DNA of 20,000 bases from Mayamaea pseudoterrestris. Its lineage: Eukaryota. This document shows positions 2,609 through 18,642 of this stretch, in pieces. The stretch is from NCBI GenBank assembly GCA_027923505.1, contig BROI01000029.1, positions 309,370 to 329,369 of the forward strand, read 5' to 3'. Each line of letters begins with the position of its first letter. Position 1 is the first letter of the stretch. The notes beneath the pieces are model-generated. The model searched no databases. It was not told the origin of the DNA and was given only the letters and a program-made list of their open reading frames with translations. The position numbers and the translations under genes are program-made.

Positions 2609-4087
2609 CTAGCAAATCACAGCTGGTTTGAGTTCATGATCATTGAGTCCATCCTCCTCGCTCGTGTCATCATAGTATTCAATCTGAGAGCTATCGTCTA
2701 GCCCCAAATCATAATCTAACCGTTCTATTCGACCCATTTCCAAGTGGGAATGCATCACGCTGTCGCCATGTTCACCGTCCTCAACAACCGGCGAAGGAGC
2801 AATCTCGTACACGATCACACCGAGAATCGTACCAGATAGGGCGACGAAAAACAGTTTCTGAGGAAGTATTCCTTGCGCTGCCACGGAGAAGACTACACTC
2901 CATATGTCTCCGGTCAGGAGTGACAAGTTGTAGAAAGTAGCTTCCGAAACCTGAAGAAACTGCGCCGTACCAACGTAACGCGCAATGCTGGCGACGACAT
3001 ATGCAGCCAGCACCCACCACGCCGTCGATCCGGTGCATGTTTCGCTACGATCGCCACTAGCAAAAAAGAATTCCGCAATCTCCTCGCGTTCAAACAAGCT
3101 GCAATGTATAAAGGCAATCATACTTGCCCAGAAGCCAAGCATGCCAAGATACTCGTCAGGTCCACCAATCGTTCGAACCGACACTTCCTGCACAACATTG
3201 CTCGCACCAACAAGCATGCCACCAATCGCCGCAAACAAGTCGCCAAGCATCATGTGCGGGTACTGCTGAACAACCACGCTTTCCGGTTCGCGCTGGTCAA
3301 CCTTGAAGTCGGTTACAATGTTTAGTACAATGCCGCCAATGCAGAGAGCGACGCCAACAAAGTGTAACTTGGTGTAGCAGCGTTGTAGAAAGACCTTTGA
3401 TAGTATGAGTGCGCTTGGAATGGCCAAGGCATCCAGCAAGGAGACGGATGTCAGTGTCGTGTACTGAAAGCCGCGCATGACAATGTAGTTGGCGTAAATG
3501 TCGAGTAAACTGATTGGAAAATATATTCTGCTCTTTTTCCAAAAATCAAAGGAAGGTGAAAGATCATGTTGAGAGGCTTGTCCTATTCTGTGGGCCGTAT
3601 CTTGTGGCATGGGCGTCGTAACGGAATTGTCGCTACTAGGTGACTCGCAGCTTGTTCGATCGGACATTGCATCATGGTCATCCTTTTCGTCGCTGCCAAT
3701 AGCAGTATTGTCGTTTCTGGCAACTTTAATCAGTAGCCCTGACAAGCCAACGTAAAAGAGCCCCACTGTAAACATTGGCGCCTTTAAGCGACAATCAATT
3801 GAAAGTGCAGCTTGGGCAGCTCCACTGCAGGCGACGAGAAACGAGAGTAATTGTCCAGCAAGTAAGACATCACACTTGTTCGCCAAGTGCTGGCAGACTG
3901 CCGAGGCCCGGCAAGAAATCAAGTCCATGAATGCGTGAACACAAGTTTGTTCACTGCTACTCTGAATTCTCATCTTTTTCATTCTTCCGGATGTCGAAGG
4001 CGGTGTTGCATTTGCGGGCGCAGATACCAACTCGGATCTTGGTCCACCAGCATCTTCGTCATAACGTCTTGAGGTTTCAACTTCCAT
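2609..4087 (-). CDS. SLC35F: Solute carrier family 35 member F1/F2-like (DUF914, DMT superfamily) transporter, 492 aa
   Basis: About 10 hydrophobic segments. Family-typical motifs LLDIYANYIVMRGFQYTTLTSVSLLDALAIP, LGDLFAAIGGMLVGASNVVQE, EYLGMLGFW and SEATFYNLSLLTGDIWS. Confidence 0.9.
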   Translation of the reverse strand: MEVETSRRYDEDAGGPRSELVSAPANATPPSTSGRMKKMRIQSSSEQTCVHAFMDLISCRASAVCQHLANKCDVLLAGQLLSFLVACSGAAQAALSIDCRLKAPMFTVGLFYVGLSGLLIKVARNDNTAIGSDEKDDHDAMSDRTSCESPSSDNSVTTPMPQDTAHRIGQASQHDLSPSFDFWKKSRIYFPISLLDIYANYIVMRGFQYTTLTSVSLLDALAIPSALILSKVFLQRCYTKLHFVGVALCIGGIVLNIVTDFKVDQREPESVVVQQYPHMMLGDLFAAIGGMLVGASNVVQEVSVRTIGGPDEYLGMLGFWASMIAFIHCSLFEREEIAEFFFASGDRSETCTGSTAWWVLAAYVVASIARYVGTAQFLQVSEATFYNLSLLTGDIWSVVFSVAAQGILPQKLFFVALSGTILGVIVYEIAPSPVVEDGEHGDSVMHSHLEMGRIERLDYDLGLDDSSQIEYYDDTSEEDGLNDHELKPAVIC

Positions 4088-4875
4088 ATTGTCCGTAGCG
4101 GGTTGTTGGTGGTGGCGCAGTGACTGTAAATCGGGTTTGAACTAAAGTAGCTAACGGTCGGTCAAGCTCGGCGAAAGAAGTTCTTCGTTGTATTTGCAGG
4201 CTAACACGAAAGCCTGATGGGTTGAAAATCTCTTCTCCCTCCTCACAGGCCTGATCAAAAATAGTAGTAGACTGAAAGTCAGCCCGTACAGAGACCAGTC
4301 GTTTGCTTGTTAACAGGCACGTTGCCTCGAAGGTACGGAACGAGTGAAAGTGACTGATTCACGGAACGAGTTCGAATCGATGCTTGACGGGATCAGTTGG
4401 GATATCGTAAACCTCTGGCGATCTAGCTCTCTAATGCACTGGTATAGTTGCTTTCAACAGCTCTGGCTCAACTCCCTCCACTCCATCTAGCGCTATTAAA
4501 AGAAAGACCCTCGACTGTTTCGTCCTTTCGAACGGATGATGAGGTTTGCGCGGGCCGTTTGGTCCGTCCGTCTTGGCTACGTGGCTTTGAAAATGTCACT
4601 CGGTCATGTGTTCTTTTCACTCCCATTTGGACAGAAATGTTGCGCACATGCGCGTTTTCACATGCATTCACTGTCATTGTACTTCTAACCTCGCAAGATC
4701 TACTTGTACATCTTTGATTACGCTGTGTATTGGTATATACTAACAATGAAGTGATTATCTTAAAGACAAAGGAGTTGAGGGATTTGGATGTTGGTGGCTG
4801 TTCTGCAAAAAGCACCTAATGAGCCACTTCAATCTTTTCCGTCCATGTGCCGTTCGATACAGTATGTGATGGAAT

Positions 4876-5937: not shown

Positions 5938-6248
5938 TGTTCTATTGTCGATAGTCGGAGGATGGTGATGAAGTAGTAAAGTCGAACTGAACAATTAATT
6001 TGTCTTGGGCTCGACAATGAATCGAAATAATGGCGGCGAGCTTGGCGGCATCGCAAAAAGCGAGCCGGCACGTGCATTTCGTGAAAAGTCGACGCACGCG
6101 GTGCGCGCTTCAAATTCGAAACTTGCTCGCAATTTCATTACTGTATGTAGCCACCATTTTAGTAACAGCTATAACTTCCTATAATATACATCAAGCCAGT
6201 TTATCGTGTGCAGTACTTTTAGTCGCACTTTTAACTTCACACAAATCT

Positions 6249-7052
6249 TTACACAAAACCTAACTTCTCCGCCACCTTGACGGTGCAATATCGAACACTT
6301 TGCTGGTTGCTCAATTTGATTCTTTCGTGCACTGTCACCAGCAAATTGATCCATGGCCTCTTTGCCCGAGTCGATAGATCCACTTTGCGCAGCAAGCCGT
6401 AGGAGTGCAAAGTTTCGCTTTGCATGTGAATGCTGCCACTACAAGCGAAAACATCCAGTTTCGAATGAGTCGGCGGTCCATCATTTGAAGGAAGCAGCTT
6501 GAGATCGGGGCTGCCCAGTAGCGCATTGGCTAGGAAATACGCGTCATTGGCAGCGATAGACCGAGTCAGGCGGAGAATGGCTGCCTGAAAAATTTGCTCT
6601 GTCGACAAGCTCGACTCACACGCCAATGAATCACATATTTTTTCCATCACCCGAAGCATTTCTTTCTTTTGGAGATTGCTGCTTCCTCCCAACTTGACAT
6701 GGTTGAGCATTATTTTAGATTGCGTCACTTCTTCCTCCAGCTTAAGCCAGCCAGCCTCGTCGTCGGCGAGCGGTCCGACCAGCTTTGGCAAAGCAATATT
6801 CCTGAGCAGCTTGCTGTCTTCTAATAAGCGCAACATCATGATTCGATCATTGTTCTTGATGAATCGATACATAGCATTCTTGAGTTGCAGCTGTGTTTCC
6901 ACCTTGTCGGCCTTTGACGCCGGAAGTTCATGCTTGCTCGCCCGATAAAGTTCGCCCTTGGCGACGAGCTCCTTTGCCTTGCTAATGGCATTGCGCTGCA
7001 ATATACTACCGGGAGAAACGATTCTGTTGCGTGGTGAAAAGGGACGGACCAT
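6249..7052 (-). CDS. Hypothetical protein, tandem paralog B (267 aa), sharing the C-terminal domain with 4876..5937
   Basis: ATG-initiated ORF. Shared blocks include NDR.MM.R, EV..SK...N, YF..N...GSPDL, H..GL.RK.DL, RPWI.L.VTV.ER..LS and SVR.C.V.V. Confidence 0.8.
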   Translation of the reverse strand: MVRPFSPRNRIVSPGSILQRNAISKAKELVAKGELYRASKHELPASKADKVETQLQLKNAMYRFIKNNDRIMMLRLLEDSKLLRNIALPKLVGPLADDEAGWLKLEEEVTQSKIMLNHVKLGGSSNLQKKEMLRVMEKICDSLACESSLSTEQIFQAAILRLTRSIAANDAYFLANALLGSPDLKLLPSNDGPPTHSKLDVFACSGSIHMQSETLHSYGLLRKVDLSTRAKRPWINLLVTVHERIKLSNQQSVRYCTVKVAEKLGFV

Positions 7053-7320
7053 TTTGCGGCAACTTGATCAATCTACTCGCAGAGGAAGAAGCACCATGGA
7101 AAATGCTTGTTTTGCGTTTGTCGAGAAACTGATTTTAGCGAGTGCCGCCTCGCTCTTGCGCGCCAGTCGAGCTACGTGACGTAATGAAAAGCTTCCGATG
7201 ACCCAAGCAGAATGACCCTGCCGCTCGCCCCCATCGACCATGACGAAGATCTCGCGTGTCAACACATGCAGCATCCGCTCTAATAAGTTATAGCTTGGAC
7301 TTGAGAGGCTAGCTGCAACC
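7053..7320. promoter_or_regulatory. Short divergent (bidirectional) promoter region between paralog B and GFAT
   Basis: Only 268 bp separate the head-to-head ATGs at 7052 (-) and 7321 (+). It contains TACGTGACGTA at 7173-7183 (bZIP-type ACGT cores). Confidence 0.45.
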
Positions 7321-9717
7321 ATGGCGACGCTCTCTCGTCGCTTACTGACAACTCAGTCACTAGTCTCGCGGTCACTTGTGACGAGGAAACTCGCATCAAA
7401 AGCCACATTCATGTCCACTAGTTCAGCAATCATTGTTCCAGCTTTGACAAACAATCATAGTCAGCAGCAATCGAAGCATTCGCATGGTCTCTGGTTGGCG
7501 GCTGGCGCAGGCTTGTTGGGGTTATTGTCTTCGCAAGAATACAATCGTAGAGCGCAGTGCTGCGGAATTGCTGGAGTAGTATCGTCTGCCAAGGCTGGCG
7601 AACATCATGATGCAAGGTACGTTCCATCTTGTCTGTACATGGAGGCAACAACGCGAGACACGCAGCTGTGCGAAGCCCCCGTCGAGATGGAATAGAGAGA
7701 GTCCCCGACAGCATCGTAAACAACGCTTGCTTACTTTGCATCCAAGGCGAAATCTAACTAATCAGCTCTTATTCGCACAGAGACTTTCTACTGGAAGGAT
7801 TGAGCATTTTAAAGAGCCGTGGCTACGATAGTGCCGGTATGGCGACGACGACCGAGGATGGAAAAGCTTTGGTAAGTTATCATAGTCTTTAAAGCAAGTT
7901 TTTCTATCTAAGTTGGCACAATATCACGCACTCATGCCATCGTCTATTCGTCGATTCACTCGCTGTAACAGGTCGTCACAAAGTACGCAAGTGATGGCGA
8001 AAAGGCCGATTGCATAGACCTTTTGCGCTCACACTCACAAGGCTCCGTCGGTCACCCAGTCGGAATCGCCCACACTCGCTGGGCCACGCACGGCGCAAAG
8101 ACGGACGAGAATGCCCATCCTCATGTTGATAGCTCCGGAAAGATTGCCTTGGTGCATAACGGTACTTTGAACAATGCGAATGAGCTCCGACGCCGACTCC
8201 AGTCGGAAGGTCATGTATTTACATCGCAGACGGACACGGAAGTCATTGCGAAACTGATAGGTCACTACTACAAATTGAGTGAAAGCAAGAGCTTGCGGGG
8301 CGCGACGGAACAAGCCTTGTTAGAGTGCGATGGGTCCTGGGGTCTTTGCATCATGTGCTCCGATCATCCAGACGAATTAGTAGTCGCCTGCAACGGTTCA
8401 CCCTTGGTGATTGGAATTGCTGACGACCGCACGTTCGTTGCGAGTGAAACTGCCGCCTTTAATCGCTACACGAAAAATTTCATTTCCATGAAGGATGGCG
8501 AAATTGGAGTGCTGACGGCTGATGGGCAGCACTTGGACCTGACGCGTCAGCAGGTGGCACCGGATCACAAGATTGTTCTTTCGCCTGATCCGTACCCACA
8601 CTGGACGCTGAAGGAATGCATGGAGCAGCCCGAGTCGGTTGCACGTGCTCTTGGTTATGGTGGTCGCATGAGCTCCGACAGAATCCAGTTGGGTGGTTTG
8701 GATACGCATGTTGACAAGCTGAAGCGAATCAAGCATATGATGCTGTCAGCTTGCGGAACGAGTTTAAACGCTTCCAAGTATGGTGAACGGTTAATGAAGC
8801 TGATGGGTAGCTTTGACACCGTGACTTGTCTAGATTCTGCCGAAACGGAAGCGAAAGATTTCCCGTGTCCCAACAACGTATTGGAGTCAGGCTTGATAGT
8901 TGTGTCACAGAGCGGTGAGACGAAAGACGTTGTCCGAGTCGTGAACACGGCGTTAGAAAAGGGAGTCACTTGCTTGAGTGTCGTCAATACCGTTGGCAGT
9001 TTGATCGCCCGGACGACAAAGCTTGGTGTGTACTGCAATGCTGGGCGAGAAAATGCAGTCGCAAGCACCAAAGCATTTACCACGCAAGTGACTGTTCTGG
9101 CGCTAGTTGCGCTGTGGTTTCGACAATTGCGCGACACAATCGAAGGGACTCCTCCAAGTGTCGAAGCGATGCGCCTAAAAGATTCGTTGATGCGCCTTCC
9201 AATTACCCTCGGAATGGCCATGAAGACCAGAGAAAAGTGCAAGGCCGTTGCGCAGCGATTGAAAGACAAGGAACATTGCTTTGTTCTTGGTAAGGGGTTC
9301 GGTGAGCCAGTAGCCTACGAGGGAGCGCTGAAGATCAAAGAAATGTGTTATCTGCATGCTGAAGGCTACAGTGGCGGTGCTCTCAAGCATGGCCCATTCG
9401 CGTTGCTTGAAGACGACAAGGGCAAGTTTGGTGCCACGCCCATCATCATGCTCATCTTTGATGACAACCACGCCCATCATATGCGCACTGCTGCTGAAGA
9501 AGTCAAGGCCCGCGGCGCAGAAATCATAATTATCACCGACAAGCCATCGTTGGCCAGAGATTTGGACCCGGACCCAATCGTGATACCCACGAATGGTGCC
9601 ATGACTGCACTGGGAGCTGTCATTCCACTGCAGCTACTTGCATATGAACTGGCCATGCTCCGCGGAGTCAACCCCGATACACCTCGAAACCTTGCCAAGG
9701 CTGTTACAGTCGATTAG
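7321..9717 (+). CDS. glmS: Glutamine--fructose-6-phosphate amidotransferase (isomerizing; GFAT/GlmS), 710-aa precursor, join(7321..7616,7781..7871,7972..9717)
   Basis: Removing GT-AG introns 7617-7780 and 7872-7971 gives one frame: CGIAGV...[22 protein letters not shown]...VVTKYA...AHTRWATHG...NAHPH...VHNG...SQTDTEV (class II glutaminase). Two SIS domains follow with [25 protein letters not shown] and the C-terminal [11 protein letters not shown]. Confidence 0.97.
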
Positions 9718-10064
9718 CTAATTGTACGAGTACACGATTATTGCACGACGACTTGTAAAGTATTTAGCTTGCTGTGGAATTTGAAATATTCTGCCAATGC
9801 TCTCCTATAACCCAGGCTTAACAGCAGTATGCCCTCGAATACAATGCTTCTATTTGTAATAATGCAAAACGTACCGGTAGATTAAATAAGGTACTGATTC
9901 GAGCCCGAAATTATGTAGAGAGGATAGCTGCGAGGCTTTCATTCTTGTGAACGAGTGTCGCCAGTTCAAACTCGCACTGCACACCATGGCGATTCATTCA
10001 CCTGTCCAATTGTCCACCTATCCCATGCACAAACTCAGCCCACTTTCCTCCGCAACAGCGTAAC

Positions 10065-10538
10065 ATGTCAAATTCTTTGAACGTCCTTGCAATAGTCTTG
10101 TTTTGGTTCCTGTCCGTGACCAGTCTCATATCCGGCATATGCGGATTCCTGCTCAAGCTTCCAAAGTTCTATTTTCCAGAATGTTACATGGTCAATGGCG
10201 TTCCAGGCACAGGCGATACAGACTTTGAAAAGATTGCGACATTTGTCTTTGCATGCGTCTACATTGCGCCAATTGGAGGATTAGTCTACGCCTACTTTGC
10301 GCACGGCGCAGTGTCCGAGGCAATGATGTCTGCGTCGATTGCTCCGCTGCTGTACCACGCCATGTCATTCTTTGGGATCTACTTTGTCTTTGGTCGATAC
10401 TTAAATCCTGAATTCACATCAATGCACGGAGCTGCGGCAGTGCATGCAGTCTATGCCATATTGTTCGGAGTGCTCTTTTGGGCGGCGTCGAGTAACGAGA
10501 CGAATGAGGTGTTTACAACATCATCAAAGACTGACTAA
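10065..10538 (+). CDS. Small hypothetical membrane protein (157 aa, about 4 TM helices)
   Basis: ATG preceded by C/A-rich 5'UTR-like sequence. Four hydrophobic stretches (VLAIVLFWFLSVTSLISGICGFLL; IATFVFACVYIAPIGGLVYAYF; IAPLLYHAMSFFGIYFVFG; AAAVHAVYAILFGVLFWAA). Confidence 0.75.
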   Translation: MSNSLNVLAIVLFWFLSVTSLISGICGFLLKLPKFYFPECYMVNGVPGTGDTDFEKIATFVFACVYIAPIGGLVYAYFAHGAVSEAMMSASIAPLLYHAMSFFGIYFVFGRYLNPEFTSMHGAAAVHAVYAILFGVLFWAASSNETNEVFTTSSKTD

Positions 10539-11039
10539 TTATGCGAAGACCAGCTCTAGCATGCGTTATCTAATAATTCCGCACTGCAACAGCTCTGGCT
10601 AGTGGCTACAGTGTACTCCTACTAGATCGGTTGGTGGGGTGCAATGTATTCCGAAGGTGATTTAAAGTTACCCTTGTCAATTTTCGTCTCGAGATGCGCA
10701 AATGACAAATGGGATAGGAATCAGTTATATATTTACAAAGTATAGTGATGTCATGCTTATCAGCTCTCAGTCAGCAGCGATGATAGGCGGGGAGAAGATA
10801 GCTACCCCACGAACGCAGACGTTTCTCGTGCCAGGCTGGCGCGCTCACCGCCGACGGTTTGCCATGGCGGACCGTCGTCCTCCATTTCACATCAACACCA
10901 TTGAGCAAACATTCGTCAGTACACGTAGTTATCATATCGACTGCTAGTCGACAACAGCTTAAAACTTAAATTGCCTGGCTTCCCAACCAACAAAGTTCCC
11001 AAAGTTCCCCGCTAGGCAATCTAAACGAGCAAAGAAGTC

Positions 11040-12644
11040 ATGTTATACTCGAACGTTGTTGCAGCCTCCTCGGCCTTGCTAATTTGTATAGCCCAGGCTT
11101 CTGTAACTCCTCCGTCTAATACCTACTGGTCTCGAACGGAACGAGGCGCGCACAATGATGAAGACAATGATGAAGCTGACCTAGAGACGCTCCAAGAGGC
11201 ACTGAGTGGATGGGAGCGACGGCCAGCAAGGAGCAGTGGTCTGCACCCTCGGGCGGGGCTCGCGTCGTCATCACGATTGTCGAGCAGCAGCAACAACAAG
11301 CGGAGAGGATCTAATGAGGACGATGTTGATTTCAAAAGGTCTCAAGACTGGTGGAAGGATCCATTGGCGCAGTTTGATGGAGTTGATAGTCGGGGCAGTA
11401 GGGAAATGGCGCCTTCGAAGAAGGATGACGACTACGTTTTGAATGATGATGAGCCAGAGTCAATAATGGAGGAGGATGACTTTACACTAAACGTACAACC
11501 AGTTCGAACTAAAGCGCCCCTTCCAGTAATTGAGGAACAAAATGACGAAACTGAGGTCATAACACCGCGGCCTCGCAAGACGCAACGAGGCTCATTTGAG
11601 ACTCCGAAGGAGACTATCCAAGCGAGCCCAGAAAGTCGTGTCAATCATCAAGTTGCAATCCAAGAAGAATCGCGCCAAGGCTCCTCATTTGGGTTTCCGG
11701 TCCTGCTTGCGTCATTAATTCCAGGACCAGCGAAACAATTGCTTTCTCGCATTCCAGTCATGCAGGTGCTGGCGCTGCTGGCCGTTGCAAAGCAACTTTA
11801 CGAATGGCGAATGCAGCAACCGCTTAAAGTTATTAAGAGTGTTGCCAAAGCTGAAAAGTCGCCAGCAGCTCGCAAGAAGACGAACAAGGCTGTCGAGAAC
11901 AAGCCCATTAGACCCGAAACAACACGCATGGACCATTTAGACTTGGACAGCGAATCGGACGAGGAGCTGGATCTCGACGAAGTACCAGAAGCTTTTCGAA
12001 ACAACCCCAGAACCAGAGCCGTTTTTGAGAAAAAGAAGAAACGTGCGAATGCGGCACAAGCTGCTGCTGTCCCAGAACCAAAAGCTGAAGTTGTAAAGCC
12101 ACGAAAGGTTGCGCCCGCTAAGCCGGCCAAGAAGCGAGTGACGAGCAAGAGCCAAACAAAAATGATGCCGGTTCTCTCTGGTGGGTGGACAGATGGGCTT
12201 TTTGGACCGCGCCGACCATCTGCCAGGCAGCTTATGGAGAAGGTTACCTCGTTAGAGCAATCCTTTCAGCAAGCGGAGCAAGCAAAGTCCAACCTAGAGC
12301 AAGCTTACGAGAGGGCGAACTGGCAATTGCAGGAATCACAAACGGAGTTTGACAAGCTTAAGCAGACTACGAAGTATTTGCAAGCACAGCTTCGCGACAA
12401 CGAAGAAATGCTGGAGAAGGTGGTCAAGGAGCAGGAGCACAAGTCAACGGAGGAGCTTATGCAGATGAAAGAGGCCATGATTAAGGTTGTTGAGCGAGAG
12501 CGCGAAGCCATGCGAGAAGAGTTTATCAAGCAAGCAGCCGAGCTGGAGGAAGTATGGAAGCTATCGGTGGGCAAGCGACGTCATTCGAGCCGAACCCGCA
12601 GCAGCGTTGACGACGCAAAGAGCAATGTATACAGCGTGGAATGA
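11040..12644 (+). CDS. Hypothetical protein (534 aa): N-terminal signal peptide, acidic disordered region, central hydrophobic segment, basic region and long C-terminal coiled coil
   Basis: Long ORF. MLYSNVVAASSALLICIAQA is signal-like. FGFPVLLASLIPG...MQVLALLAVAKQLY is hydrophobic. There is heptad-rich E/Q/K sequence from about 12230 to 12560. Confidence 0.8.
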   Translation: MLYSNVVAASSALLICIAQASVTPPSNTYWSRTERGAHNDEDNDEADLETLQEALSGWERRPARSSGLHPRAGLASSSRLSSSSNNKRRGSNEDDVDFKRSQDWWKDPLAQFDGVDSRGSREMAPSKKDDDYVLNDDEPESIMEEDDFTLNVQPVRTKAPLPVIEEQNDETEVITPRPRKTQRGSFETPKETIQASPESRVNHQVAIQEESRQGSSFGFPVLLASLIPGPAKQLLSRIPVMQVLALLAVAKQLYEWRMQQPLKVIKSVAKAEKSPAARKKTNKAVENKPIRPETTRMDHLDLDSESDEELDLDEVPEAFRNNPRTRAVFEKKKKRANAAQAAAVPEPKAEVVKPRKVAPAKPAKKRVTSKSQTKMMPVLSGGWTDGLFGPRRPSARQLMEKVTSLEQSFQQAEQAKSNLEQAYERANWQLQESQTEFDKLKQTTKYLQAQLRDNEEMLEKVVKEQEHKSTEELMQMKEAMIKVVEREREAMREEFIKQAAELEEVWKLSVGKRRHSSRTRSSVDDAKSNVYSVE

Positions 12645-13377: not shown

Positions 13378-16300
13378 ATGGGAGAGAAGCTCAAGTCTAT
13401 GACTGAAAATACTTCGCCGTCGATTGCCGATCAATCCTTCGCTGACGATGACGATTCGTCGTCCGTCTCCGAAACGTCAACCAGTGACCCAAGCACGGCC
13501 AACCCAACGCAAAAGAACGACTCTACGCCCGATTCGTTGACGCACAAGGAAACGAGAGCCGTCAATCGAAGCAAGGTGCTCGTCTACGTGGCCTTGTTGA
13601 TTGCTGCAATCGGTGTCGGCGTCGCAACCTACTTCATCTCCCATCAAGCCCAAGTCGATGACTATGAGACAGCCGTAAGTCTTCGAGAATGATATACGTT
13701 GCTTGTTCTCTTGCCGATGATGTGTCGAGAGAGAAATTTGATTACCTCTTGCTTTGGTATCAGGCGTTACGAAACATTTGAGACTACTGATGTACACTAT
13801 TGTCGAACAACATCCTCGTTCTCATTATCATTCTCATTATCTTTTACATATTGACAGTTCGCCAAGCACGCCAACGATGTTGGAATTGTTGCCAACAATA
13901 ACGCCAACAATCTATTTGGGGTGGTGCGCTCTATGGCCACGGCCATTACTTCGTATTCGCAAGAGCAGGAGCAAAGATGGCCGACGCTTCCTAACTTTGA
14001 CGCACGAGCAACCGATGCCAAAGGACTGGCTGGTTTAGAGTTTATCGCTTATGCTCCAAAGGTTGCGGCCGACGAAACAACGGCATGGGAAACATACGCG
14101 CAGAAGAAGCAAGGTTGGATTGCCAAGGATTGGAGCTATCACGATGTTTCGACTGACGCCGGTTCCGTCCCTTCTAAAATCTACTACGACGGTCCGCGTG
14201 GCGAAATCAATGAGAATGAGGATGCAGATGACGCAGTGGGAGCAGATGAGTTCGAAATGAAAGGTGTCCACTTTCCTCTATGGCAGGCCGGACCTGTTCC
14301 GCACAATGCATCAGTCATTAACTTTGATCTTTATCAGCATCCCGCGTTTCGCGACAAGTTTAATGACGGAATCGAAGCGAGAAAAATGCTTATATCTGGT
14401 GTTGTGGATATTGATTTCATATTGGAACGCATTATTAGCCACAATCACACAGATGGCGAACACCAAGACCATACGAGCAGTGTCATTTTTCAGCCAGTCT
14501 TTGACGACTTCACTGACGATGCCAATGTGACGGGCTTTGTTCTTGCCGGAGTTCCGTGGCAGCATGTTCTTAGCGGTATTCTACCAACCGGTAAGTTCTC
14601 GTATGAAGCTTGAGCGAGTTGGTGGATACAACTGCACTTATCTCATTTGTCAAATGCTCCGCAACTCAGGAGTCAACGGAATTCTGGTGCAAGTGCAAGT
14701 CACTTGCGGTGGCTCTTTCACGTACATGTTGAACGGACGCGAAGCTCTTTACGCCGGCAAAGGTCTTCTTGGAAAGGCGAATGATGAGCGTCACGTAAAA
14801 TCATTCCCATTCGCAGAAGTAACCCGTTTCACCGAAGACAATGAACAGGATTTTGATTGTTTATACGCGCTCAACGTTGTAGCTACGGAATCATTTGAAC
14901 AGACTTTTTTCACCAGCGGACCAATCGTCTTTGCATTTGTCGTTGCGATGACTTTTGTGGTCACCGCTTGCGTCTTTGCCGTCTACGACTACACGGTCTT
15001 TCGTCGCCAAGCCAAGTTGCTTAGCACGGCGGAACGGACCAATGCGATCGTCTCCAGTCTCTTTCCAAAAGACGTTCGTGACAGAATAATGGCTGAGGCA
15101 GAAGAACAAGCGCGCCAAGAATCGGCAAAGCCAACCAAGGCATTTGGGTCGTCGGCGAAAAACCAACTGAAAGCAATTCTTGGTGAGCACGACCATGCAA
15201 CTGATACGATCTTTAAAACCAAGCCTATTGCCGATTTGTTTCCAGACGTTACCATTATGTTTGCGGACCTGGTCGGTAAGTTAAAACTAAATGGAAGAAA
15301 AAACAACTCGCCATTGGCGTTGAATGCGAACTGACACGTATATAATTTTCGTACACAGGTTTCACAGCTTGGAGCAGCATGCGTGAACCAGCACAAGTGT
15401 TTACTCTTCTAGAAACCCTTTATCACGAATTCGATCAGATTGCACAAAGTCGTCGAGTATTCAAAGTTGAAACCGTCGGCGATTGTTACGTTGCTGTAGC
15501 AGGTCTTCCCGATGCCAGGAAAGATCATGCGACCGTCATGGTAAGCTCCCATGGCAGCGTGAGACCTCTGCCACGAAAGAATGTCAGATGACCGCTCACA
15601 TCTCCCAACTCTCCGTCAGGCTCGCTTCGCTCGGGACTGTCTTTATAAAATGCATGTTGTAGTCCGACAACTCGAGGTTTCTCTCGGACCCGACACAGCT
15701 GAGCTCGGACTTCGTCTTGGATTGCATTCAGGCCCCGTGACCGCTGGAGTTCTTCGTGGTAAACGTGCTCGATTCCAGGTAAGCGTGAATGCGTATTTGT
15801 TAGCATTGATCTCCAGCGTAGCAAATTCTCAAGTCGCGCATTTTCCGAGCAGCTCTTTGGGGATTCAATGAACACGACAGCCCGTATTGAGACAACCGGT
15901 GCCAAGAACAGAATCCACATGTCCCAAGAAACGGCCGACTTGCTCATTGGGAGTGGCAAAGGACACTGGATCCGCGCTCGCGAAGATAAAGTCCAGGCGA
16001 AAGGAAAGGGCGAGCTCACCACTTACTGGCTAGAGGTCAAGGGCGACGTCGCAATGTCCCGAAGCTCAGCCACCAGTAGCAGTGAGGGCGGAACTCGAAA
16101 CAACGTCGCTGCCGATCGTGAAACAAAGCCCGTCTCGTCCAGCGACCCAGGGCAGAAAACATCGACTGACGACAAAGCTTTGCGTCTCGTCAACTGGAAC
16201 ACGGAAGTTATCAGTCAGATGCTCAAGGACATCATTGCTCGCCGTGAAGCGATAGGTACTGTGTCTGATACAAATTCAAATCTCGCCGAGTTGGAAAAAC

Positions 16301-17352
16301 AATCCCAAATTCTTGATCACACTGTCCTCGAGGAATGCACCGACGTGATTAAGATGCCAAGCTTTTCTTCAATGCAGCATTCCAGCACGCCGATCAAGCT
16401 CGAATCAGTTGTCGTCCAACAGCTGCATCTCTACGTCGAAACAATCGCTGCCATGTACCGCTCCAACCCATTTCACAACTTTGAGCATGCCTCCCACGTC
16501 ACCATGAGCGCTACCAAGCTTCTTTCTCGCATTGCTGCACCAGACATTGAAATATCGGGCGACGGTGACATCAACAGTGAGAAAATATTGCACGACCACA
16601 CGTATGGAATTACATCAAGTCCCTTAACTCGGCTAGCCATCGTTTGGGCGGCATTGATCCACGACGTTGACCATACGGGCGTTCCAAACTCGCTGCTGGT
16701 CGAGGAACATGCAAGCATCGCTGCCGCTTACAAGAATAAAAGCGTCGCAGAGCAGAACTCCATTGACATCGCCTGGGACTTGCTCATGCAGGACACATTC
16801 AAGGACCTCCGCAGGACAATTTACCAGACGGAGGATGAGTTCAAGCGCTTCCGGCAGCTCTTGGTCAACGTTGTGTTGAGCACCGACATCATGGACAAGG
16901 ATCTGGCGGCAAAACGCAAGGCGAGATGGGTCTTAGCGTTCGACCCGAGAGCTTCGGTCGGATCAAAGGAGGAACTGACGGCTCGCAAGGCATCCATTGT
17001 CATTGAGCATCTCATTCAAGCTTCCGACGTCGCACACACGATGCAGCACTGGCACGTGTATCGCAAGTGGAACGCAAGACTTTTTGAAGAAATGTACAAG
17101 GTGTGGAAGGAAGGCAGGTCAGCTCAAGATCCCAGCGAAAGCTGGTTCCAAGGTGAGATGGGCTTCTTCGACTTTTATATCATTCCGCTCGCCAAGAAGT
17201 TGAAGGATTGCGGTGTGTTTGGTGTCTCTAGTGACGAATATTTGAATTATGCCCAGCAAAATCGTCGTGAATGGGAGTTGAAAGGGAAAGAAATCGTTTC
17301 CGAGATGGTGGAGAAGGCAGATGCCAAATTCAGCAGCCTTCTTTGCATGTAG
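13378..17352 (+). CDS. Membrane receptor-type (guanylate-like) class III nucleotide cyclase fused to a class I cyclic-nucleotide phosphodiesterase, with an extracellular CHASE-like domain; 1158 aa, join(13378..13674,13858..14590,14670..15275,15359..15540,15620..15778,15853..17352)
   Basis: Five GT(AAG)-AG introns splice in frame (3477 nt in total). TM1 is VLVYVALLIAAIGVGVATYFI and TM2 is IVFAFVVAMTFVVTACVFAVY. Cyclase motifs: VTIMFADLVGFTAWSS, FKVETVGDCYVAVAGLP, LRLGLHSGPVTAGV, RFQLFGDSMNTTARIE and KGKG. PDE motifs: NPFHNFEHASHV, IHDVDHTG, LSTDI and QASDVAH. Confidence 0.93.
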
Positions 17353-17498: not shown

Positions 17499-18332
17499 TC
17501 AGCGAACACGCGACAAGCGCAGAACCAAACACTCCATTTCTCGTCCCCACTCGCATCCAGCAACGCCGTAAACATTCTCAGATATATCCTCCACTCGCAA
17601 GTCAAAGTCGCTTGCCTTTTCCAGCAGCATCGAATGCGAAAGGGCGCACCGGACCTGGACGCAAAGGTAGATTGTGGTGTGCGCATGACTGAGACGTTGC
17701 AACGTTCGCAGCAGCGGGCAGACTAATCGTGGCGAAAACAAAACGTCCGTCCCAACAATTGTGTCGAGCGGATCCCCTAGCAGATTGCTGTTTGTCGCAA
17801 TGTCTCGTTCCAGGTGCAACCAATCCAAGATGCAGCAGCTAACATTGACGTTGGGAGCTTGTCGAAGCAGCGTGTCGCGGTTCCTTTGCACGTTCGCATC
17901 AAGGTTTTCAAATGCCTCAAGACATTCCGATAGAACGACTCGCTTCGTCGATGATACCACTGCCAATCCTTGTCCAAGAAGTCCGCAACCGGCGCCTACC
18001 TCGAGCACATTGCCGAGTGGCGTGAATGTTGTCGCGGCATCGGATAACGATGAGGCTGCTGTCAGATACGTCAAGAGCAGATAGCAAGTTTCCCAAACGA
18101 TACCACCAGTATGCTGTAGACAGGCTGAAACGTCTTGGTTGATGACAAGCATGTTGCTTTGTGGCGTCAGCTCATTGGCACTTTCCGTCGCGCTGCGTCG
18201 GATCGCTAGCGACGACAGGCGATAGGCTATTTGCGACGCATTTGCCAGCTCGAAAAAAGCGGAAGAAGCATCCTCGCCATTGATCAAAATGTCTGGAAAG
18301 ATGAGTGGTTCTATGTCGGAGTTGTGGGCCAT
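17499..18332 (-). CDS. Seven-beta-strand lysine methyltransferase, family 16 (METTL21-like)
   Basis: Motifs HTGGIVWETCYLL, VLEVGAGCGLLG (SAM motif I), VVLSE, LDW and DTIVGTDVLF. The ORF extends to ATG 18467, but ATG 18332 (MAHNSD) is a plausible real start. The start is uncertain. Confidence 0.85.
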   Translation of the reverse strand: MAHNSDIEPLIFPDILINGEDASSAFFELANASQIAYRLSSLAIRRSATESANELTPQSNMLVINQDVSACLQHTGGIVWETCYLLLTYLTAASSLSDAATTFTPLGNVLEVGAGCGLLGQGLAVVSSTKRVVLSECLEAFENLDANVQRNRDTLLRQAPNVNVSCCILDWLHLERDIATNSNLLGDPLDTIVGTDVLFSPRLVCPLLRTLQRLSHAHTTIYLCVQVRCALSHSMLLEKASDFDLRVEDISENVYGVAGCEWGREMECLVLRLSRVR

Positions 18333-18642
18333 AACGGTGATTGGAGATACTTGATTTGTCGTCGATGTAAACGAGCGAGTTGAATGATGGGCGGTGCATA
18401 ATATATTATGGTCGACCGTCAATAAGAACAGTGTCGTTCCGGTATTTAGAGCATGCCGTTGAGACATATTACAACGTACTGTGGTGCGAGCTACCGGTAC
18501 GTTGACAGTAGCCTATCCTCTGTACAAACTCACAGTCAAACCAAACTGAGCAATCCTCAATTTACCTACTATAGGAAGCATCAGCATTGTTAGTGGTTAC
18601 TTCAAAGTGAACCTATCACTGGTAGGCAGGATGTGATTCAGC

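Follow-up and report, generated by a model that had tools for sequence, protein, structure and literature searches.

Class II amidotransferases of the N-terminal nucleophile (Ntn) type require the α-amino group of their first cysteine, Cys1, to be free (PMC9140057; this and the other papers cited are drawn on in excerpt). E. coli GlmS (2J6H, 4AMV) and human GFAT1 (6R4E), built of a glutaminase and two SIS domains, start Met-Cys, need only Met removal and are cytosolic. In the plastid enzyme GPRAT2 of Arabidopsis and in B. subtilis PurF, Cys1 is masked by a transit peptide and/or propeptide that has to be removed exactly (PMC7056826). Proteins that follow the stop-transfer route into the mitochondrial intermembrane space carry a presequence and a hydrophobic segment that is arrested in TIM23; the mitochondrial processing peptidase (MPP) acts in the matrix, and Imp1/Imp2 then release the protein on the intermembrane-space side (PMC8061763). 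The subject of this study is a gene at 7321-9717 (+) of a 20,000-nucleotide stretch from the diatom Mayamaea pseudoterrestris (contig BROI01000029.1, positions 309,370 to 329,369 of the forward strand; hereafter the window), whose product appears to combine these two known kinds, the stop-transfer proteins of the intermembrane space and the Ntn amidotransferases with removable leaders: it has the domains of GlmS and GFAT1, and its catalytic Cys lies behind an 80-residue leader. Judging from the sequence of this protein and its relatives, we put at about an even chance that the precursor is imported by stop transfer and then cleaved by the mitochondrial inner-membrane peptidase (IMP), which would yield a soluble intermembrane-space GFAT with a free Cys1.

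Like the GFAT leader, those of yeast cytochrome b2 and cytochrome c1 join a basic presequence to a sorting segment, with a second cut shortly behind it (PMC8061763). GFAT differs from both in that its cargo is a cytosolic-type metabolic enzyme, that the second cut would create a catalytic N-terminus and that the diatom residue before the cut is Cys. The leader of cytochrome b2, at 80 residues, is of the same order as that of GFAT. In Smac/DIABLO, as proposed here for GFAT, maturation in the intermembrane space exposes a functional N-terminus (PMC8061763). The two proteins are unrelated, however, and what the new N-terminus of Smac provides is the AVPI binding motif instead of a catalytic nucleophile. 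In contrast to what is proposed here for the GFAT leader, the removable parts of GPRAT2 and PurF are reported to come off autocatalytically, in the plastid stroma in the case of the plant enzyme, and they involve neither a sorting segment nor a rule for residues -3 and -1 relative to the cut. Yeast Ptc5 also has a bipartite leader cut by Imp1, and its mitochondrial/peroxisomal link echoes the two leader types of GFAT described below (PMC8061763), but Ptc5 has both signals on one protein, whereas in the GFAT clade they sit in different lineages.

Predicted mitochondrial targeting of diatom GFATs is already in print: three of four Cyclotella cryptica GFATs are predicted to be mitochondrial by several programs (PMC5124317), as are three of six from Thalassiosira rotula by HECTAR (bioRxiv 10.64898/2026.07.09.737548). 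Both papers leave this targeting as a puzzle of fructose 6-phosphate supply, and their excerpted text mentions no hydrophobic segment, intermembrane space, masked Cys1 or cleavage site. An intermembrane-space location, if true, would remove the transport puzzle, and it bears on the flow of carbon and nitrogen into chitin in diatoms, in some species of which chitin makes up a large fraction of the cell (PMC5124317). It would also extend the known cases beyond binding motifs of the Smac type, to a sorting cut that creates an enzymatic N-terminal nucleophile, with import amounting to activation. In the open literature, supplements aside, we found no description of a bipartite intermembrane-space leader on GFAT, of Cys1 masking, of an abutting -3/-1 site, of the spread of such leaders across stramenopiles, alveolates and Rhizaria (SAR), or of the alternative leader that resembles a type 2 peroxisomal targeting signal (PTS2). 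A literature search on diatom bipartite presequences for the intermembrane space returned nothing on GFAT, and one that paired this compartment with hexosamine or GFAT brought up, among the matches listed, only mammalian diabetes, cancer, cardiac and mitochondrial topics.

Anatomy of the leader

The 80 residues that precede the catalytic Cys fall into the following parts, all on the forward strand:

7321-7401 (+), residues 1-27: matrix-targeting-type start, with an R-x-L-A motif at 22-25
7402-7485 (+), residues 28-55: spacer rich in Ser, Thr, Gln and His, polymorphic between alleles
7486-7533 (+), residues 56-71: uncharged hydrophobic segment of 16 residues, mostly Ala, Gly and Leu; maximum Kyte-Doolittle (KD) hydropathy over 15 residues, 1.66
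7534-7560 (+), residues 72-80 (QEYNRRAQC): polar linker of 9 residues; A78-Q79-C80 are positions -3, -2 and -1
7561-7563 (+), Cys81: Cys1, the N-terminal nucleophile of the mature enzyme; predicted cleavage between 7560 and 7561

In the translation of 7321-7617, Met1 lies at 7321, Cys80 at 7558-7560, and Cys81-Gly-Ile-Ala-Gly-Val runs from 7561, so that CCGIAGV occupies residues 80-86 with no Met before Cys81. The first 30 residues hold six basic and no acidic residues, and the leader as a whole 9 Lys+Arg, 1 Asp+Glu and 20 Ser+Thr; its first acidic residue is Glu73, and an acid-free run of 72 residues has a probability of about 8e-5 at the 12.2% Asp+Glu of the mature part. A strict R-x-[FLYIM]-[SAT] pattern occurs at residues 7 and 22. 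Such a pattern describes an MPP-like cleavage motif. A signal-peptide-like core is absent from the first 30 residues (maximum KD over 10 residues, 0.49). The segment at 56-71 reads as a putative stop-transfer sorting signal. The window leader belongs to the class with a hydrophobic segment and contains no match to a PTS2-like pattern (R-[LIVQ]-x5-[HQ]-[LA]). A search with exon 1 alone (99 residues) against longer proteins gave no match at E<=0.01, and in Pfam and NCBIfam, for which the query is too short, it matched no family; the empty search indicates that the leader is kept in layout and not in sequence.

Gene structure and transcripts

The gene has three exons, whose 2133 nt encode 710 residues without an internal stop:

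7275-7320 (+): 5' leader of the mRNA, minimum extent, from the start of X3 record 16; no ATG, in-frame TAG at 7291
7321-7616 (+): exon 1, the 80-residue leader with 18 and 2/3 codons from the beginning of mature GFAT; joint 7616>7781
7617-7780 (+): intron 1, 164 nt, GT..AG; joint seen in runs X2, X3 and X4
7781-7871 (+): exon 2, from spliced contigs
7872-7971 (+): intron 2, 100 nt, GT..AG, from spliced contigs
7972-9717 (+): exon 3, remainder of the glutaminase domain, plus two SIS domains; stop TAG at 9715-9717
9718-9853 (+): 3' untranslated region, minimum extent; X4 record 21 reaches 9853

Transcripts were sought in four public runs from one study, of unrecorded library type, whose contigs were aligned to 6000-10300. 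Three of the four runs (X2, X3, X4) each yielded a contig that skips exactly both introns, whereas X1 held only the unspliced, DNA-like form; as they come from one study, X2, X3 and X4 are counted as one source. The 2210-nt contig of X3 record 16 (7275-7614 / 7779-7870 / 7971-9747) runs from upstream of Met1 through the whole leader into the catalytic domain, which places leader and catalytic exon on one mRNA. The in-frame TAG at 7291 lies 27 nt upstream of the start ATG at 7321, and a scan of ATGs and stops showed that the upstream ATGs at 7212, 7240 and 7266 can neither extend nor replace it. If transcripts start at or before 7265, where X2 record 10 begins, the 5' leader also contains a short upstream open reading frame at 7266-7283 (ATG, five sense codons, TAA). 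A preliminary description of this stretch had placed CGIAGV at residue 81 (7561-7563) without a preceding Met, behind 72 residues free of Asp and Glu, a hydrophobic stretch and A-Q-C, all of which the translation bears out. It had also named an alternative exon that would put Met before CGIAG as evidence that would overturn its reading; none occurs in the spliced contigs of X2, X3 and X4, in which the leader is contiguous with CGIAG.

In three runs, the stretch 7371-7490 is represented by pairs of 120-nt contigs that disagree at 7429, 7449 and 7460. This is an allelic bubble, which accounts for the breaks between contigs there and from which the source appears heterozygous or mixed. Single-nucleotide polymorphisms (SNPs) in the leader comprise three nonsynonymous changes, R17W, I37V (7429) and S47N (7460), and two synonymous ones; among those listed for the mature part, two are nonsynonymous and 12 synonymous, with 11 further SNPs unlisted. 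The leader tolerates amino-acid change, and the pattern is what a targeting peptide fused to an enzyme under constraint should show.

Identity of the enzyme

By its domains and its closest solved relative, the gene product is a GlmS/GFAT of bacterial type. Exon 3 matches GATase_6 (7.1e-21), GATase_7 and, in two stretches, SIS (6.6e-33) of Pfam. Its best solved relative is E. coli GlmS, matched in one stretch at E 7.6e-96; human GFAT1 (6R4E) gives a weaker match, E 6.6e-79 in two stretches, and this difference assigns the diatom enzyme to the bacterial type. The family model TIGR01135 (glmS) was applied to four full-length orthologs, and all four scored 505-518 bits against a cut-off of 418; in each of them, position 1 of TIGR01135, of TIGR01134 (purF) and of TIGR01536 (asnB) coincided with the second Cys of the CC doublet. 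Exon 3 is 77-79% identical to the orthologs P0014, P0043 and P0008 and 74% to P0099. The ortholog P0004 matches E. coli GlmS at E 1.9e-101, its C81 aligning with residue 2 of 4amv_A, and retains the motifs around E. coli R26, R73, W74, T76, H77, N98, G99 and D123, which we take to be the glutamine-site residues; the same motifs are present in the window translation, and the glutaminase site is thus intact. By family membership the enzyme should thus depend on Cys1.

Conservation among diatoms

Among the 120 best matches to exon 3, those with a name come from diatoms, namely Fistulifera, Seminavis, Nitzschia, Cylindrotheca, Thalassiosira, Pseudo-nitzschia, Epithemia and Grammatophora oceanica (79% identity). 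The CGI motif is reached in 76 of them; the other 44 are N-truncated gene calls and uninformative. None of the 76 starts Met-Cys, and in 61 a Met start is followed by a leader of at least 45 residues with the same three-part layout, a recurrence that makes the layout more than chance. In the full-length set of 62, which consists of these 61 and the window protein, leader length has a median of 83 residues (range 49-126), and the first 30 residues contain a median of 0 acidic and 6 basic residues. The uncharged segment has a median length of 17 residues and a median maximum KD of 1.83 over 15 residues, and the linker from segment to Cys a median of 9, the same as in the window. A KD of 2.0 over 10 residues, as for a signal-peptide-like core, is reached within the first 30 residues in 0 of the 62.

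Around the expected cut, the 77 motif-bearing sequences (the 76 matches and the window protein) have Cys in 76 cases and Ser in one at position -1; Thr (45), Ala (27), Ser (3) or Val (2) at -3; and variable residues, Asp, Glu, Lys, Gln and others, at -2.

Two leader types and the cleavage-site rule

Beyond diatoms, relatives were collected by a search of 50%-identity representatives and by a profile search built with 16 non-diatom relatives. Among the 115 newly listed proteins examined, a leader is present in 96 and a Met-Cys start in 18, and one lacks the motif; by this survey of sequences, bacterial-type GFAT bears leaders in many eukaryotes and protists. Two types recur:

Type A, 62 sequences outside the diatom set: window-like layout with a hydrophobic segment. 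Members include Besnoitia, Chromera, Spongospora, Amorphochlora and Partenskyella. Position -1: A40, C13, N4, T2, S1, L1, G1. Position -3: A42, V9, S4, P4, L2, T1.
Type B, 21 relatives: 30-56 residues, no hydrophobic segment, a conserved RRLxVTxxHL-like element. Members include Dictyostelium, Heterostelium, Polysphondylium, Tieghemostelium and Percolomonas. Position -1: T13, V3, C3, A1, S1. Position -3: Q6, E3, N3, S3, H2, V1, A1, Y1, I1.

Non-diatom leaders of type A mostly end A-x-A|C, and those of Eimeria and Cyclospora are similar, with the same CC site, but stay below the hydrophobic-segment threshold of this type. The CC doublet itself is found in diatoms (-1 Cys in 75 of the 76 matches) and in apicomplexan and chromerid relatives, most other lineages having Ala. 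Type B leaders, among them those of P0317, P0323-P0326, P0333, P0341, P0342, P0344, P0348, P0368 and P0382-P0384, end [D/E]-[T/V/C] directly before Cys1. Their conserved element fits the minimal PTS2 pattern R-L-x5-H-L, and on this basis the type B leader suggests a peroxisome-routed GFAT that would be activated by cleavage. We found no paper on a PTS2 in connection with Dictyostelium and glucosamine, and nothing relevant in the literature on an N-terminal extension of Plasmodium GFPT.

The comparison of the two types bears on how the leader is removed. A small residue at position -3 is the rule only in leaders with a membrane segment ahead of the site, and type B shows no constraint there. 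The -3/-1 rule is a property of enzymes of the signal-peptidase type. If the constraint came from self-cleavage, both leader types should show it; if it came from a membrane-bound homologue of type I signal peptidases, it should be limited to type A and accompanied by a short linker of fixed length. The coupling of the -3 constraint to the membrane segment thus points to cleavage of the signal-peptidase type, which in mitochondria would mean IMP. The counts come from kin sequences that are not independent and describe a pattern, not a probability.

A FastTree phylogeny of 172 mature domains, obtained by a single quick method with long branches flagged and therefore indicative only, unites all type A and type B sequences in one supported clade and places the 15 diatom entries in one clade with support 100. 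Within the leader-bearing clade there are also about 20 GlmS sequences with a Met-Cys start, 606-630 residues long (most 606-609), of which 19 form a single group next to type B. Ten of these sequences (P0283, P0284, P0292, P0294, P0300, P0301, P0306, P0307, P0315 and P0330) share 61-64% identity with the protist protein P0122, and one of the ten, P0301, is named as a Patescibacteria metagenome-assembled genome; gene transfer between eukaryotes and these bacteria, in either direction, is possible.

Proposed maturation of the precursor

We posit that GFAT is synthesized with a bipartite mitochondrial presequence and is inactive in this precursor form. The basic, acid-free start would lead the N-terminus through TOM and TIM23, the 16-residue Ala/Gly/Leu segment would be arrested in the inner membrane, and the matrix-exposed start would be trimmed, probably by MPP. 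IMP, a homologue of type I signal peptidases on the intermembrane-space face, would then cut after A78-Q79-C80, 9 residues behind the segment, and this one cut would both free a soluble intermembrane-space enzyme and create the α-amino group of Cys81. The cut may occur during import, ahead of domain folding, so that the otherwise buried scissile bond would be accessible to the peptidase. Fructose 6-phosphate and glutamine could enter the intermembrane space, and glucosamine 6-phosphate leave it, via outer-membrane porins. Small metabolites exchange between this compartment and the cytosol through these porins, and the rest of the hexosamine pathway could for this reason stay cytosolic. From the observed anatomy, transcript, family, glutaminase site, layout and -3/-1 conservation we infer the compartment, the peptidase and activation by cleavage. 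The preliminary description had recognized an architecture of the IMP-substrate type and proposed a comparison of orthologs; the architecture gains support from the -3/-1 pattern that accompanies the hydrophobic segment, and presequence, segment and small-x-small|Cys turn out to be conserved in diatoms and beyond. Its placement of the committed step of hexosamine synthesis in an organelle calls for the qualification that the intermembrane space exchanges small metabolites with the cytosol through porins.

Several observations weigh against cleavage by IMP in the intermembrane space, some of them by favoring one of the alternatives taken up below. A Cys at -1 is unusual for IMP, since the yeast enzyme has Asn or Ala there. 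The strict R-x-[FLYIM]-[SAT] motif precedes the segment in only 24 of the 62 full-length sequences. Shorter leaders, or models without a Met start, account for 15 of the 76 diatom matches; these short-leader models are likely truncated, and isoforms that lack the presequence are possible.

The main rival, which we hold to be unlikely yet worth serious attention, keeps the same targeting but has the folded glutaminase domain cleave its own Cys80-Cys81 bond in the manner of PurF, the segment serving only to anchor or sort the protein. Class II amidotransferases remove short propeptides autocatalytically, and a peptidase is not strictly needed (PMC7056826, PMC9140057): members of MEROPS family C44 lose a few residues ahead of the Cys by autocatalysis (PMC9140057), and AtGPRAT2, an enzyme of the PurF kind, is processed to Cys87 in E. 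coli (PMC7056826). The acidic residues that are frequent at -2 in hydrophobic-segment and PTS2-like leaders alike also hint at a shared intrinsic requirement. Position -3, however, is small or aliphatic in 75 of 75 diatom leaders and in 58 of the 62 other leaders with a hydrophobic segment and is unconstrained in the 21 PTS2-like ones, and the constant linker of about 9 residues from segment to cut is a signal-peptidase trait. The restriction at -3 that accompanies the segment speaks against self-cleavage as the sole mechanism. The leader has 80 residues and targeting features, unlike a short propeptide, and in the excerpted literature on the topic we found no report of self-cleavage for any GlmS or GFAT.

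That the segment fails to arrest import, so that the whole precursor enters the matrix and loses its leader there, strikes us as improbable. Published predictors do call diatom GFATs plainly mitochondrial, and a mitochondrial supply of glutamine has been suggested (PMC5124317; bioRxiv 10.64898/2026.07.09.737548); the segment, too, is only moderately hydrophobic, with the maximum KD of 1.66 in the window and the median of 1.83 given above. But Arg is absent from positions -2 and -3 of the cut site, which is for this reason not of the MPP type, the conserved uncharged segment of about 17 residues and the -3/-1 site would have no role in matrix import, and fructose 6-phosphate would depend on a carrier in the inner membrane, a difficulty pointed out in PMC5124317.

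Less probable again is a segment that acts as an internal signal peptide or anchor of the endoplasmic reticulum (ER), cut by ER signal peptidase, with the enzyme bound for a secretory or plastid-associated compartment. The same -3/-1 rule applies to that peptidase, and PMC5124317 also reports weaker ER signal-peptide predictions; among the T. rotula GFATs, one of six is predicted to be in the ER and two of six to be cytosolic (bioRxiv 10.64898/2026.07.09.737548), and the GFAT of Toxoplasma gondii is labelled "Plastid" in the excerpted text of PMC12292971, in which the source of the label does not appear. The window protein, however, has 55 residues, with a strongly basic region among them, ahead of its hydrophobic core, and 0 of the 62 full-length sequences have a hydrophobic core within the first 30 residues, as diatom ER and plastid import requires; substrates and the next enzymes of the pathway are cytosolic (PMC5124317).

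We think still less of a transit in which the leader alone engages TOM and TIM23, IMP cuts, and the mature enzyme slips back to the cytosol, in a manner resembling yeast Ptc5, which Imp1 processes in mitochondria before it arrives in peroxisomes. Ptc5 and Nde1 are stop-transfer proteins with a dual location (PMC8061763), and a cytosolic downstream pathway would then need no explanation. Against this, GFAT has no second targeting signal, its C-terminus (...KAVTVD) not resembling a type 1 peroxisomal targeting signal, and the route would be needless, since Met-Cys with removal of Met yields the same N-terminus in other GFATs. A gene-model artefact, with a true Met-Cys start from another exon or start site, would account for the short leaders in 15 of the 76 diatom matches but is scarcely credible in view of the spliced 2210-nt contig that begins at 7275, spans the leader and continues into the enzyme, the in-frame stop at 7291, the lack of an in-frame ATG abutting the Cys and the count of 0 of 76 for Met-Cys starts.

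More tentatively than the intermembrane-space maturation of the window enzyme, and as a reading more likely wrong than right, a broader scheme can be drawn from the leaders of its relatives: the whole eukaryotic clade of bacterial-type GFAT would never start Met-Cys, and an organelle import peptidase would be its obligatory activator, by a mitochondrial intermembrane-space route, with an IMP site directly before Cys1, in diatoms, other SAR lineages, apicomplexans and chromerids and by a peroxisome route, with a PTS2-like leader in that place, in dictyostelids, heteroloboseans and others. If this is true, the step that commits to the synthesis of hexosamines, chitin and glycoconjugates would lie outside the cytosol and be switched on by import across much of eukaryotic diversity. 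T. gondii GFAT (TGME49_231350) was captured by ApiCox35-BioID, ApiCox35 being a complex IV subunit, beside cytochrome c (PMC12292971, Table 2), an indirect hint at an intermembrane-space location that would apply to this clade if the protein is the ortholog of the Besnoitia one; the main text of the hyperLOPIT study does not mention it. The strongly negative fitness score of T. gondii GFAT (table of PMC12292971), together with the same layout in apicomplexans, makes GFAT maturation of wider interest.

Other genes in the window

The GFAT gene is flanked by two frames without a Pfam match, one of 272 residues at 6249-7067 (-) and one of 539 residues at 11025-12644 (+). The former, upstream and on the other strand, lies some 250 nt from the GFAT start, close enough that a single short promoter region may serve both. 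Roughly 3 kb upstream of GFAT, a frame at 2612-4141 (-) has a match to solute carrier family 35 member F (E 5.6e-40), a transporter family akin to nucleotide-sugar carriers. Downstream, consecutive frames at 13855-17349 (+) match CHASE (weakly, below the cut-off), the guanylate/adenylate cyclase catalytic domain and 3'5'-cyclic nucleotide phosphodiesterase, and probably form one multi-exon sensor-cyclase-phosphodiesterase gene; a frame at 17502-18512 (-) matches the lysine methyltransferase family Methyltransf_16 (E 1.3e-19).

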